Shown: positions 21,983-25,008, numbered from the stretch's first letter. The stretch is 64,000 nucleotides of DNA from Methanocaldococcus sp. 28A (GCA_049852185.1 CP187540.1), one strand, 5' to 3'. Numbers and translations: made by a program. Notes: generated by a model from the letters alone, not told the origin.

Positions 21983-22236
21983 ATTTTACTTTTATAAAGT
22001 TTTAGTTATTTTAGAATTATTAAAAATCTTAATTGGCTAATTATTTGTATATTTATGCTTTACTATTTAGTTTAAAATAGTAATATATATATGTGTTTTT
22101 ACATTTATAATTATGAAAAATGTGGAAAATGATATGATATTAAAAAGTATGTTAAATTAAAAAATATTTGGCGATGATGCCCTCTATGGGCGGAGCCAAT
22201 ATTAACGGGCTATATTGAACCACCATAGAAAGGTGG
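21982..22236 (+). repeat. ~255-bp duplicated promoter/5' leader, copy 1
   Basis: Near-identical to 24759-25008; each copy directly precedes a peptide precursor gene. Confidence 0.92.
22168..22236 (+). promoter_or_regulatory. Structured 5' UTR: k-turn, AT hairpin and SD-sequestering hairpin (copy 1)
   Basis: TTGGC-GAT-GA-T-GCCC-TCTAT-GGGC-G-GA-GCCAA fits the k-turn consensus; CCACC-ATAGAAA-GGTGG pairs with the RBS. Confidence 0.65.
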
Positions 22237-22240
22237 CATT

Positions 22241-22543
22241 ATAAATATATTAAAGGGTAGTGTATTAAAAGTTTTCGGAGCTGTAGTTTTAGTTAGCATG
22301 ATAGGTGCTTTAGTAGCTGAGCCTGTTGCTTTAGGGGATATTGGAGTGGCTTATTATTTAAAATATCATAACGATTATGGATATATTGATGATGGAAAAG
22401 ACTATGGTAAAAAAGGAATAAAAATTCTTGCAGCGGTAGCTGCAATTGAAGAAGTTGAAGGAACTACTGAAGCAGCTGTTTTAGCTGCATGTGGTCTTAC
22501 TGGTATAGGATTAGTAGCTGTGGGAGCCACAATGGTTTGCTAA
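22241..22543 (+). CDS. Putative archaeocin/bacteriocin-like peptide precursor A (ATA at the homologous start position)
   Basis: In-frame extension (I/M)NILKGSVLKVFGAVVLVSMIGALVA|EPVALGDIG aligns with the leader of 25014-25295; Ala/Gly-rich hydrophobic C-terminus. Confidence 0.7.
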   Translation: MNILKGSVLKVFGAVVLVSMIGALVAEPVALGDIGVAYYLKYHNDYGYIDDGKDYGKKGIKILAAVAAIEEVEGTTEAAVLAACGLTGIGLVAVGATMVC

Positions 22544-22565
22544 ATCTATAATAAGTATAAGTAGT

Positions 22566-22967
22566 GTGATAATTATGAAATCTTTTATTTTTTATTTTTT
22601 TTATAATTGGCGTACAATATTAAATTTATGGATAGTATTTATTGTTGTTTTATTAGCTATTGTAACATTAAAACCTAAAATATCTATTAACATTAAAAAA
22701 TCTGGGGCGATATTGGTTATTTGTATAATTTATACATTACTAAATATATTTGCTTATTATGTTATAGGAAATATTAGTTTAAACATATTGTCTAATGTTT
22801 TTATATCTGTTGTATTATTTGGAATTGGAATAATATTGTATGTTAAGTACCAGTCTGAAAAATTAACAAATAATACTGTTAAATATGCAGCAATTGTGTT
22901 ATTGTTTTTGTCTTTAATAGATGTAATAGAATTATATATAAAAATTCTAATTAAATTAGTTTCTTAA
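22566..22967 (+). CDS. Small ~4-TM membrane protein, putative immunity protein A
   Basis: Highly hydrophobic, Lys-rich loops, directly downstream of precursor A; function inferred from position. Confidence 0.6.
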   Translation: MIIMKSFIFYFFYNWRTILNLWIVFIVVLLAIVTLKPKISINIKKSGAILVICIIYTLLNIFAYYVIGNISLNILSNVFISVVLFGIGIILYVKYQSEKLTNNTVKYAAIVLLFLSLIDVIELYIKILIKLVS

Positions 22968-22975
22968 TTTAAATA

Positions 22976-24108
22976 TAGGACTTTTGCAAGCATATTTAAA
23001 TATTTATTATAATATTTCATGATAATCTATTTTTATCAGATATTATAATTTTTCGAAACAAAAGTTTATTTTGGGGAAAATATGCTAAAAATGTCGAGGA
23101 CTATCGTTTATATGCTTTTTATATTACTTTCAGAGATTAATTCGTGTGTAGAGTTATCGAAAACGTTGCGTATTTTCGGAATCGACATATCTCACGATAC
23201 AATAAATAGAATACTTTGGGAAGAAGGAATCTTCCCACAAGAAAAGCTTTTTAATTTCGTTAAAGATTTAATCACTCCTGATTATAATATTGTCGTTATA
23301 GATGACTTTGTTATAGATAAAATTTACTCTAAATCGACTGAATTTGCTTATTATTGTTGGAGTAATCTACATAAACGAGTAATTAAAGGCTTACATATCG
23401 TTGATTGCATAATTACAAATGGAAAACATATTATTCCAATCGATTTTAGAGTATATGACAGACCAAGAGATGGAAAGACGAAAAATAATTTATGTAGGGA
23501 GATAATAAAGTCTTTAGTGGATAAAGGATTAAATATTAGATATATCTGTTTCGATAGTTGGTATTCAAGTAAAGATAACTTAAAACTTATCGATAGTTTA
23601 GGTTTATTCTACCTCTGCAGAATTAAAAGGAATAGAAAGGTAAAACTCTCCAAAAACAGAGAGTGGGTATCAATCGAAGACATTAAGGAAATTCCTAAGA
23701 ATGGATTAATCGTTTATCTACGAAAAGTTGGCTATGTCAGACTCTTCTGCCTTTCCAAAAACGGAAAGGCAAAATATTATATAACTAATAACCTATTTAT
23801 GAGTTTCGAAGAATTCCAAGAGGTCAAAAACGCCTCTTGGAGAATCGAGGAATTCCATAGAGGTGTTAAACAGTGCTGTAATACAGGCAATTTCTTCGTT
23901 AGAAAAAAATTTCCAATTTTAGGTCATATCTCCCTTTCTATGAGAGCTTTTTACCTCTTAGAGAAAATTAGAATCGATAAAAATATTAGTTGGTATGAAC
24001 TTAGAAGAAAACTAAATCGAATAGCTGTTGGTAATGCCATAATCTCTTTGTGTGAAGAAATTGGTTTATCGTTAATCTAAGTATTTAAATGTGGATGCGA
24101 AAGTCCTA
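22976..24108 (+). mobile_element. IS701-family insertion sequence, copy 2 (intact)
   Basis: TIR TAGGACTTTTGCA / TGCGAAAGTCCTA; 8-bp target duplication TTTAAATA. Confidence 0.93.
23082..24080 (+). CDS. IS701-family DDE transposase
   Basis: VVIDDFVIDK, CFDSWY, WRIEEFHRGVKQ. Confidence 0.9.
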   Translation: MLKMSRTIVYMLFILLSEINSCVELSKTLRIFGIDISHDTINRILWEEGIFPQEKLFNFVKDLITPDYNIVVIDDFVIDKIYSKSTEFAYYCWSNLHKRVIKGLHIVDCIITNGKHIIPIDFRVYDRPRDGKTKNNLCREIIKSLVDKGLNIRYICFDSWYSSKDNLKLIDSLGLFYLCRIKRNRKVKLSKNREWVSIEDIKEIPKNGLIVYLRKVGYVRLFCLSKNGKAKYYITNNLFMSFEEFQEVKNASWRIEEFHRGVKQCCNTGNFFVRKKFPILGHISLSMRAFYLLEKIRIDKNISWYELRRKLNRIAVGNAIISLCEEIGLSLI

Positions 24109-24134
24109 TTTAAATATTTAATTCAAATCTGCCT

Positions 24135-24255
24135 GTGAAACCATGAAAAAACTACCATCAATATTAACAATACTTAGATTAGAATATTAATCGTTATAGC
24201 AGCTTTCATATAGGTTTATATTACTCCATAAGTAGCAAATTATTTATTGGCATAA
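24135..24255 (+). pseudogene. Internally deleted SpoIIM/DUF95 relic 2
   Basis: MKKLPSILT start like relic 1 fused to ILIVIAAFI*VYITP*VANYLLA*, matching IIAAFVEVYITPKVAN of 25699-26256. Confidence 0.8.
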
Positions 24256-24311
24256 GGTTCAAATAGATTATAAGGATAGGATAATAAAACCAAAATTAAG
24301 GTGGTTTAAGA

Positions 24312-24524
24312 ATGAAAACAATTAAATTTAGAGTTTATTATGATGGGAAGTATTGGGTTGCAGAAGGTATTGATGTAAGTATATTTACACAGGGAGAGAC
24401 GTTAGATAAATTAATGAAAAATATTAAGGAAGCGGTAGAATTACATTTTGAAGATGAGTTAAAGGCAGGAGAAGTTATAAAAATCCTCTCAGTCTCTGAA
24501 ATGGAGGTGCGAGAATTTGCATAA
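24312..24524 (+). CDS. hicB: HicB-like antitoxin (UPF0150)
   Basis: FTQGETLDKLMKNIKEAVELH motif; overlaps hicA. Confidence 0.85.
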   Translation: MKTIKFRVYYDGKYWVAEGIDVSIFTQGETLDKLMKNIKEAVELHFEDELKAGEVIKILSVSEMEVREFA

Positions 24525-24759
24525 ACTTCCAGTTGTTAGTGGTAGAGATTTAATAAAATTCCTTAAAAAGTTGGGATATGAGATTGTTAGACAGAGAGGT
24601 AGTCATGTAAGATTAAGAAAAGAAACTGAAAATGGTATTCATAATATAACTATCCCATATCATGATGAAATTGCTAAGGGAACTTTAAATGCTATTTTAA
24701 ATGATGTTTCTAAATGGAATAATATATCAAAAGAGGAATTGATAAAAAGACTAAAATAA
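24517..24759 (+). CDS. hicA: HicA family mRNA interferase toxin
   Basis: LPVVSGRDLIKFLKKLGY, RQRGSHVRL, ITIPYHDEIAKGTLNAIL. Confidence 0.9.
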   Translation: MHKLPVVSGRDLIKFLKKLGYEIVRQRGSHVRLRKETENGIHNITIPYHDEIAKGTLNAILNDVSKWNNISKEELIKRLK

Positions 24760-25008
24760 TTTACTTTTATAAAGTTTTAGTTATTTTAGAATTATTAAAA
24801 ATCTTAATTGGCTAATTATTTGTATATTTATGCTTTACTATTTAGTTTAAAATAGTAATATATATGTGTTTTTACAATTACAATTACGAAAAATGTGGAA
24901 AATGATATGATATTGAGAAGTATAAAAAAATTAAAAAATAGTTGGCGATGATGCCCTCTATGGGCGGAGCCAATATTAACACGCTATATTGAACCACCAT
25001 AAGAGGTG
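24759..25008 (+). repeat. ~250-bp duplicated promoter/5' leader, copy 2
   Basis: Near-identical to 21982-22236. Confidence 0.92.
24942..25008 (+). promoter_or_regulatory. Structured 5' UTR: k-turn, AT hairpin and SD-sequestering hairpin (copy 2)
   Basis: Identical k-turn TTGGCGATGATGCCCTCTATGGGCGGAGCCAA; CACC-ATAAGA-GGTG covers the RBS. Confidence 0.65.

Follow-up and report, generated by a model that had tools for sequence, protein, structure and literature searches.

A conserved box C/D-like k-turn and an anti-Shine-Dalgarno hairpin in the leaders of a putative secreted-peptide gene family of the Methanococcales

A stretch of 64,000 nt from Methanocaldococcus sp. 28A (GCA_049852185.1 CP187540.1; the window) carries two small-peptide genes, here copies A and B, whose 5' leaders contain the same compact, structured segment. 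This raises the question of whether the segment is a functional RNA element and, if so, of how it might act on the genes that follow it. A first-pass annotation of the window had described a kink-turn (k-turn) and a hairpin occluding the Shine-Dalgarno (SD) site, and had proposed an undescribed cis-regulatory or messenger RNA (mRNA)-stabilising element. The comparative analysis reported here identified the k-turn hairpin, with clear covariation, in 17 genomes of the Methanococcales, associated with a family of genes for peptides with signal-like N-termini. The k-turn and the SD hairpin very probably constitute a functional RNA element acting in cis, and the mechanism tentatively favoured for it combines stabilisation of the message with throttled initiation.

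In both copies the k-turn hairpin reads UUGGC-GAU-GA-U-GCCC-UCUAU-GGGC-G-GA-GCCAA on the + strand, as annotated, and comprises a 5-bp canonical (C) stem, a 3-nt bulge, tandem G.A/A.G pairs, a U:G at position 3b:3n, a 4-bp non-canonical (NC) stem and a 5-nt loop. The leader element as a whole spans positions 22168-22236 in copy A and 24942-25009 in copy B (+ strand), and the (C)CACC...GGUG(G) pairing described across the SD site was found in both, copy B ending in GGUGA. The window contains the 28-nt core of the k-turn twice, while none was expected from 100 shuffles, and these are its only two occurrences in the whole 1.56-Mb genome. Both window hairpins were recovered by single-sequence folding with ViennaRNA (z about -2.4 and -2.6). 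The claim of a GC-rich island in AT-rich DNA also held, with a GC content of 59% in the hairpin, compared with 29.7% genome-wide and 14-16% across the preceding 180 nt. As the annotation had stated, the two copies differ mostly in loops: just one of about 10 differing columns of the 86-nt leader affects a helix of the proposed structure, as a G-to-A change in the pair that closes the SD stem. Both copies lie inside a near-identical duplication of ~250 bp (about 21985-22235 versus 24761-25010), the AT-rich upstream part of which is conserved equally well as the leader. The identity of the copies is therefore uninformative on structure and, because they share one duplication, structural support must come from other genomes.

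The comparison set consisted of 40 Methanococcales genomes, in which leaders were located by BLAST, the loci retrieved and a covariance model built; a model search at phylum level covered the same 40 genomes as that at order level. At E-values up to 0.001 the leader model matches 17 of these genomes. By genus (g1 to g5), they are 11 of the 16 g1 genomes besides the window genome, 3 of 13 in g3 and 2 of 2 in g5, with 0 of 7 in g2 and 0 of 1 in g4. Extending the threshold to 0.01 adds an 18th genome, whose sole match is a true box C/D small RNA (sRNA). In an alignment of 28 distinct leaders from the 17 genomes, 93% of cells pair according to the proposed structure, compared with 28-44% after sliding the 3' partners by 1-3 columns, and the covariation score was reached by none of 500 shuffles. 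The NC helix is paired in 96% of cells, with four of its five pairs changed on both sides, and the SD helix in 90%, with two pairs changed on both sides. The GGC/GCC of the C stem is invariant in all 28 leaders; among its outer pairs U-A predominates and is exchanged for C-G once, and the stem reaches 7-9 bp in g3 (GGUUGGC/GCCAACC, AAGGUCGGC/GCCGACCUU). RNAalifold, starting from the alignment alone, returned the same k-turn and SD hairpins. A model-fitted alignment of 56 distinct hits, biased towards the model and containing a few off-target rows, gave 91.6% pairing, with double-sided changes in 11 of 15 pairs. The first-pass annotation had named a lack of structural conservation in homologous loci as one outcome that would refute it; conservation was instead observed in the loci of 17 genomes, together with covariation.

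An alignment-free and register-free tabulation anchored on the G.A pairs yielded 41 distinct hairpins, one of which (L049) is probably a chance match. Their complementary NC stems measure 4-9 bp and come in 19 sequences, such as GCCC/GGGC, GCCUC/GAGGC, GCUCC/GGAGC, GGAC/GUCC, GAACAU/AUGUUC and GAAUAG/CUAUUC. The tandem GA/GA is present in 40 of the 41, a C:G pair at -1b:-1n in 37 and a G:C pair at 4b:4n in 39; the bulge is GAU in 36 hairpins, UGU in four and AAU in one, and position 3b:3n is occupied by U:G (23), U:U (7), U:A (5), C:U (5) or A:U (1). The hairpins present the components of a simple k-turn: a Watson-Crick C helix, a 3-nt bulge with tandem G.A/A.G pairs, and a continuing NC helix. 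Their 3' end lies 24-45 nt before the ATG, and the SD is never included in the k-turn. At seven loci in six genomes (L016, L042, L048, L050, L051, L053 and L056; G008, G016, G025, G026, G032 and G038) two k-turns follow each other at 4-8 nt; in the g3 tandems the distal hairpin has a GAU bulge and U:G at 3b:3n, and the proximal one a UGU bulge and U:U. A DNA palindrome or operator was also considered. This alternative was rejected on account of the G.U pairs in the NC stems (e.g. GCUUC/GGAGC), the asymmetric GAUGA/GGA core and arms that are variable yet complementary; the G.U pairs and the asymmetric core speak for RNA of the + strand.

The SD hairpin lies 15-25 nt downstream of the k-turn, beyond a variable, unconserved linker. 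Its pairing is mostly CCACC/GGUGG, in which the last G deviates from the better SD match GGUGA and yet pairs with the anti-SD. The GGUGA form occurs in copy B and in G026, where it is compensated (UCACC/GGUGA), and two further genomes, G004 and G007, have CCACU/GGUGG. Several g3 leaders with the SD AAGGAGG carry another anti-SD, CUCCUU or CUCCCUU, pairing with the AAGGAG part. In the window genome, CACC occurs within 22 nt before the SD in only 5 of 533 crude open reading frames (ORFs) with an upstream GGTG. Judged from these sequences, the SD hairpin is under selection. The mean unpaired probability of the SD computed with ViennaRNA is at most 0.29 at 37 C in 27 of the 28 leaders, the 28th having been mis-anchored in this calculation; the prediction has the SD largely paired at both 37 and 65 C, and unpaired with a probability of 0.22-0.86 at 85 C, where the energies are a rough extrapolation and the k-turn is not modelled. 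Bacterial SD-sequestering hairpins and RNA thermometers rely on a short anti-SD/SD stem of this kind and, like them, the stem described here is predicted to open with heat; unlike bacterial thermometers, the leader is archaeal and joined to a k-turn module, and its temperature control is a model prediction. The analogy with type I toxin leaders drawn in the first-pass annotation found no support among the features examined, which did not include a search for antisense RNA. A conserved upstream block (AUGUGG) was assessed as a possible anti-anti-SD and rejected, since its variants (GUAG, UUGG, GUGUAA) occur without matching changes in the anti-SD.

Between the two hairpins, the annotation had placed a CAAUAU/AUAUUG stem. 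This stem is present in both window copies and in the nearest relatives, G006 and G010, but it is not family-wide: G007 and G016 have CAAUU(C)/(G)AAUUG in its position, other lineages have other small hairpins or none, and it is missing from the RNAalifold consensus. The middle hairpin was accordingly rejected as a family feature and is considered lineage-specific.

The weakest matches of the leader model are true C/D sRNAs, which leads to the question of how the leader hairpin relates to this class. A C/D sRNA of the window genome (C1:1161921-1162030, minus strand) consists of UUUGGC-GAUGAUGA, a guide, CUGA, a C' box, a second guide and CUGA-GCCAAA, and has its terminal stem, box C and box D in common with the leader hairpin. 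The features shared with the terminal core of archaeal C/D sRNAs are the G:C pair at 4b:4n, the UUGGC/GCCAA stem, and boxes C and D with the sequences (G)AUGAUG(A) and C(U/G)GA, respectively. Box C appears on the 5' strand as AUGAUG(A/C/G), with AUGAUGA in many copies, and box D as CUGA in the 12 hairpins with U at 3n and as CGGA or CAGA in the others. Unlike C/D sRNAs, the hairpin is part of an mRNA leader and has neither guides nor C'/D' boxes, a stem of 4-9 bp and a loop of 4-9 nt replacing some 45 nt. A guide sRNA is characterised by C'/D' boxes and two guides of ~10-12 nt; here the 12-27 nt between the G.A pairs are all stem and loop. By its sequence, the leader hairpin is a guide-less box C/D core that stands outside the guide-sRNA family.

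The description of the element as undescribed withstood searches of databases and literature. An Rfam scan of the window at gathering scores returned only the box C/D sRNA sR2 (RF01139, 56 bits), located elsewhere, at 49455-49509. An E-value scan of 21900-25400 returned nothing at the element and one chance match to NEAT1_2 (E 6.8), and E-value scans (up to 10) of three related loci also returned nothing at the element. A full-text literature search retrieved no description of the element or of a leader of the peptide family. A loose k-turn descriptor applied to the whole genome gave 136 mostly chance matches, the credible ones being the two leaders, two hairpins linked to IS605/TnpB and ribosomal RNA sites. 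A second compact k-turn-like hairpin, GCC-GAU-GA-G-AGGGC-UCU-GCCUU-C-GA-GGC, is present in the window genome, outside the window, at C1:737242-737269 and C1:1177719-1177746. This hairpin is found where IS200/IS605 TnpB-type genes end (3'), immediately ahead of a conserved stretch resembling structured RNA; the same module is inserted into a family peptide gene of G013 (L067), and it recalls the OrfB-linked k-turn RNAs of Pyrococcus abyssi.

An obvious candidate ligand for an archaeal k-turn is L7Ae, and the window genome encodes both L7Ae and L30e. Its l7ae gene (C1:666662-666934, minus strand) has a k-turn-like motif of its own upstream, CCAC-GAU-GA followed by a 9-bp hairpin and GGA-GUGG, which may be an autoregulatory k-turn as in other archaea or a separate small RNA. 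After this motif, a second GC-rich hairpin with a T run precedes the SD. The archaeal precedent invoked in the annotation is real, action of L7Ae on k-turns in 5' untranslated regions (UTRs) being reported in the accessible text of PMC5539422 and PMC6298567. Repression by L7Ae was demonstrated with reporter assays for l7ae and two further Sulfolobus mRNAs (Daume et al. 2017, PMC5539422), and in all six l7ae operators described in the available portion of Huang et al. 2019 (PMC6298567) the SD lies inside or beside the k-turn helices. Like these operators, the leaders analysed here are archaeal, bear an SD and contain a simple k-turn hairpin in which tandem G.A pairs follow a GAU bulge; L7Ae would be the expected ligand. 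They differ in serving another gene family, in having the SD in the separate downstream hairpin and in occurring as tandem copies. According to the same portion of PMC6298567, protein-free folding is favoured by C at 3b, G at 3n and C:G at -1b:-1n, features absent from the switch-like l7ae operators it describes. The leader hairpins, unlike these, have C:G at -1b:-1n in 37 of 41 cases and G at 3n in 23, with C at 3b in five, and in most of them the C:G pair is combined with one of the other two features. By these rules, as far as that text states them, the leader k-turn would be of the self-folding kind and not a protein-triggered switch.

Other archaeal precedents offer partial parallels. The leaders sRkB and sRkC of Pyrococcus abyssi are reported in the excerpted text of PMC3124441 to contain k-turns, to be shifted by L7Ae in gels, to hold the start codon in a stem and to be processed from a longer transcript. 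They share with the present element an archaeal 5' leader with k-turns; as described there, they measure ~210 nt and are linked to remnants of OrfB transposase genes, whereas here a 32-nt hairpin and an SD hairpin precede a peptide family, and sequence, fold and taxon are unrelated. In Pyrobaculum, C/D sRNA genes overlap the 5' ends of protein genes, and Lui et al. 2018 (PMC6009581) speculate, in the part of the paper available, that L7Ae, Nop5 and fibrillarin hinder initiation or protect the RNA. Both cases involve a C/D-type k-turn on an mRNA, with co-transcription reported there and probable here. The Pyrobaculum RNAs, in that account, are full guide sRNAs containing the start codon, while the element studied here has no guides and its ORF begins 24-45 nt downstream. 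The same source presents the C/D ribonucleoprotein (RNP) as thought to shield the sRNA from nucleases degrading the remaining mRNA, and PMC7994747, again as partially accessible, reports that the maturation of C/D sRNAs from longer precursors is decided by the box motifs and not by the flanks. By analogy, an RNP on the leader would be expected to define and protect RNA ends (PMC7994747).

The genes downstream of these leaders define a family of their own. A profile built on the N-terminal 36 residues of the encoded proteins gave 52 matches in 18 of the 40 genomes, these being the 17 genomes with leader matches and G037. The proteins share an N-terminus of the form M(K/N)...K.F.A....L.M.GA..A.P.ALGD, after which they diverge completely into hypervariable Gly/Ala-rich hydrophobic cores of 55-75 aa, with some proteins reaching 295 aa. 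At least one intact k-turn was found upstream of 38 of 43 listed gene starts of the family in the retrieved loci (29 single, 9 tandem); the list includes two genes entered at each of two adjacent ATGs and one entry whose signal peptide differs. Five entries have no intact k-turn: one gene is truncated by a contig end, another has a single A.C mismatch in its hairpin, a third is split by an IS605-type element, and the G037 gene accounts for two entries. In G037, the only g4 genome (L064, G037:C1:118900-119700), the k-turn has decayed to ...AGUCAGCGAUGAUGAAC... and the ATG of the ORF lies inside the former box C; the element is hence not indispensable, since this gene lost it. The window genome has just two family genes, both with the leader. 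A few k-turn leaders precede genes for other secreted proteins of the peptide-gene clusters, with different signal peptides (L046, L057, L061). Searches of Pfam, NCBIfam and the ESM Atlas returned no family for the peptides, and homologues in Methanocaldococcus and Methanothermococcus are named just 'hypothetical protein'. A wider pattern scan of contigs identified one true hairpin, in a Methanothermococcus metagenome-assembled genome, among the 80 loci listed of at least 120, which does not imply absence outside the Methanococcales; the other listed loci are bacterial, lack a comparable NC stem and in many cases appear to represent one conserved coding stretch.

In the window, the copy B peptide has a signal-like N-terminus ending in ...PVALGD and a 60-aa Gly/Ala-rich core. 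This core is 84% identical to a protein of Methanothermococcus okinawensis; as that species belongs to the order's other family, lineages may have exchanged such genes. The cluster downstream of copy B, at 25355-31697, comprises, after a small membrane ORF, genes for SpoIIM/DUF95, Yip1, a protein with a CARDB domain and an exporter made of an ABC ATPase and a MacB/FtsX permease; this arrangement recalls (circular) bacteriocin loci. Beyond it lies a 440-aa ORF (32855-34177) with a Cas12f1-like TNB domain, similar to TnpB. The two copies are separated by an insertion sequence (IS) with a DDE transposase (23082-24080) and a HicA/HicB pair (24312-24759); the IS has the inverted ends AGGACTTTTGCA and TGCGAAAGTCCT at 22976-22987 and 24096-24107. 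Copy A looks like a decaying partial duplicate, and its gene is possibly a pseudogene or provided with a weak start, given the ATA at 22241-22243 in place of ATG. A fragment similar to the N-terminus of the SpoIIM gene is found upstream of it, at 21800-21930. Table 1 collects the features of both leaders.

Table 1. Features of the two peptide-gene leaders in the window.
Feature	Copy	Position	Strand	Remark
Distal TATA-like box	A	22081..22092	+	TAATATATATAT; candidate promoter P1, putative role suggested by sequence
Conserved block	A	22113..22130	+	ATGAAAAATGTGGAAAAT; predicted transcript start region, ~32 nt past the start of the TATA box
A-rich tract	A	22145..22167	+	Immediately 5' of the k-turn
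k-turn hairpin	A	22168..22199	+	C stem UUGGC/GCCAA, bulge GAU, NC stem GCCC/GGGC, loop UCUAU
Middle hairpin	A	22197..22217	+	CAAUAU/AUAUUG; lineage-specific
Anti-SD/SD hairpin	A	22220..22236	+	CCACC-AUAGAAA-GGUGG
Peptide gene	A	22241..22543	+	ATA where the family has ATG; tblastn match to the signal-like N-terminus starts at the ATA codon
Distal TATA-like box	B	24856..24865	+	
Conserved block	B	24886..24903	+	ACGAAAAATGTGGAAAAT
A-rich tract	B	24919..24941	+	Immediately 5' of the k-turn
k-turn hairpin	B	24942..24973	+	Identical to copy A
Middle hairpin	B	24971..24991	+	Loop differs from copy A by 2 nt
Anti-SD/SD hairpin	B	24994..25009	+	CCACC-AUAAGA-GGUGA; closing pair C.A
Peptide gene	B	25014..25295	+	93 aa; ATG at 25014

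An RNA role for the leader presupposes that it is transcribed. In three genera, a strong TATA box is found ~90-100 nt upstream of the k-turn. This canonical box (TTATATATATA) is followed after ~32 nt by the conserved block, and the pair lies a variable 55-75 nt upstream of the k-turn. The block takes the form A[T/C]GAAAAATGTGGAAAAT in g1 and g5 and the related form GAAAAAAATGGAAATT in g3; copy B has ACG in it, so that the block is not conserved as a start codon. Closer to the k-turn, an A-rich tract with the sequence ...TTAAAAAATTAAA(A/G)AATAGTT stands at a fixed distance from the GGC in g1 and g5, and a purine-rich GAAAAAAGGTT in g3. Archaeal TATA boxes are usually centred near -26 from the transcription start. 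Combined with the T(A/G) initiator reported for M. jannaschii in the accessible text of PMC7289017, this spacing predicts a 5' UTR of ~128 nt holding the whole element, and transcription through the motif is hence probable. A search of sequencing runs listed no RNA dataset containing the locus. In three vent metatranscriptomes from one study, searched at 80% likeness, four AT-rich pieces of 34-39 nt with less than 90% identity were retrieved, none of which bridges the leader, a result uninformative on expression.

The mechanism favoured for the element, with a probability of roughly 0.45, is that a k-turn RNP protects or defines the 5' end of the mRNA while the SD hairpin throttles initiation. 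The element would be a conserved, transcribed and cis-acting 5' leader of small secreted-peptide genes of the Methanococcales, composed of two modules. The guide-less box C/D-type k-turn hairpin would most likely be bound by L7Ae, and the resulting RNP, by analogy with C/D sRNA biogenesis, would block the 5'-to-3' trimming of a longer primary transcript, predicted to begin ~55-75 nt upstream of the k-turn at the conserved TATA promoter. The mRNA would thus be long-lived, with a 5' end both defined and protected. In the second module, the anti-SD (CCACC, or CUCCUU in some genomes) would pair with the SD in a short hairpin, predicted to be marginally stable at growth temperature, so that ribosome loading would be throttled and not abolished. 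Protection of the 5' end is favoured because the motif equals the sRNA core, has self-folding features, never includes the SD and is sometimes duplicated. Several points weigh against this proposal. The binding of L7Ae is postulated from sequence only, and experiments have demonstrated no role for k-turns in archaeal mRNAs other than translational repression, as far as the accessible text of PMC5539422 and PMC6298567 reports. If the distal promoter is real, the k-turn is off the primary 5' end and the model needs a trimming step, as yet hypothetical here, and from usual promoter distances the A-rich tract could be a second promoter with its start inside the motif. The apparently intact family gene of G037 has no k-turn. 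Finally, the related genomes are non-independent samples, with paralogues homogenised within a genome as in the window, and the opening of the SD hairpin at 85 C is subject to the aforementioned limits of the energies.

A close rival, although a rather doubtful one, is L7Ae-dependent translational repression, which would place the peptide genes in the L7Ae regulon. Free L7Ae, alone or with Nop5 and fibrillarin, would hinder the 30S subunit from a k-turn 25-45 nt upstream of the start codon or favour the closed SD hairpin, and peptide synthesis would follow the state of ribosome and RNP assembly. For k-turns in archaeal mRNAs it alone has been demonstrated by experiment (PMC5539422), and it has a structural basis (PMC6298567), in the available portions of both; the l7ae gene of the window genome also has its upstream k-turn-like motif, the 24-45 nt from k-turn to ATG are near enough for a bulky RNP to clash with the ribosome, and tandem k-turns would reinforce the effect. 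Yet the SD lies outside the k-turn helices, across the variable linker, unlike in the six l7ae operators described in that portion of PMC6298567, the sequence features point to self-folding, and in SD-led initiation without scanning from the 5' end an upstream roadblock is not obviously inhibitory. A more specific and unlikely proposal combines these elements into a dedicated guide-less box C/D RNP on Methanococcales mRNAs: L7Ae, in tandems perhaps with Nop5 and fibrillarin, would sit on the leaders of secreted bacteriocin-like peptides and accessory proteins and tie their output to ribosome/RNP assembly, with the anti-SD hairpin as a second, temperature-sensitive gate. It is more improbable that such an RNP of L7Ae, Nop5 and fibrillarin has another role, in sorting or localising the messages of secreted peptides or in methylation in cis, the tandem form mimicking C/D plus C'/D'. 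The near-perfect box C, the CUGA box D in 12 hairpins, the G:C pair at 4b:4n in 39 of 41, the terminal stem identical to that of a true sRNA, the tandem hairpins at nine of 43 gene starts and the signal-like N-termini of all downstream proteins are in line with this idea; against it stand the missing guide region and 12-nt spacer, the single k-turn in most leaders (29 of 43) and the absence of precedent in the full-text literature search, and none of the analyses run speaks for Nop5 or fibrillarin.

Two further explanations would deny the k-turn a role in the message. In one, which is very improbable, the element overlaps the promoter: the A-rich tract would be the TATA box, transcription would start inside GAUGA, the RNA would keep the NC stem-loop only, and the k-turn would reflect coincidence or a feature of the DNA. 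An TTTAAAAA-like sequence does begin 22-23 nt before the GGC in g1 and g5, usual TATA spacing and the T(A/G) initiator (in the accessible text of PMC7289017) would put the start at GAU|G, and covariation of the NC stem also fits a 5'-terminal hairpin. Nevertheless, g3 keeps the hairpin without a TATA-like tract at that distance, and extends the C stem to 7-9 bp with a U-A to C-G exchange; tandem loci have no A-rich tract between the distal and proximal k-turns; conservation of the 5' strand is matched by that of the GCC strand and the tandem G.A pairs (40 of 41); and a real C/D sRNA has the same core. Least probable of all is a decayed C/D sRNA gene or tiny separate RNA that rides a promoter cassette with no effect on the message, as might be suggested by the homogenisation of promoter, leader and signal-peptide region as a cassette within genomes and by the likeness of the hairpin to an sRNA with its guides deleted. 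Conservation in three genera with compensatory changes speaks against such a remnant, as do the mismatches carried by copies beside broken genes, such as the two in the G013 hairpin next to an IS-disrupted gene, and the presence of the hairpin ahead of other secreted-protein genes with different signal peptides (L057, L061, L046).

As a k-turn-bearing archaeal mRNA leader, the element belongs to a known kind. Four features appear to be new, from comparison of the sequences with known k-turn leaders: a C/D-type core with self-folding features, an SD lying apart from it, an added anti-SD hairpin and a fixed link to hypervariable secreted peptides. So far, k-turns in archaeal mRNAs have been described chiefly in the message of L7Ae itself and in a few cases from Sulfolobus and Pyrococcus; the present analysis adds a compact C/D-type k-turn that is a constant component of the leaders of an entire gene family in three genera, shows clear covariation and represents a candidate for a new Rfam family. 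The analysis also draws attention to an uncharacterised family of putative secreted peptides which, beside genes for SpoIIM/DUF95, Yip1 and an ABC transporter, looks like an archaeal counterpart of bacteriocin loci. If L7Ae binds these leaders, its natural regulon would be enlarged, and hyperthermophiles would possess a natural two-module leader, with a protein platform and an SD gate, like those built by hand in synthetic biology. The leaders offer a testable case for asking whether k-turn RNPs shield archaeal mRNAs from 5' decay as they do sRNAs and, should the proposal of a dedicated C/D RNP on mRNAs prove true, they would constitute a post-transcriptional regulon of a kind undescribed in archaea.

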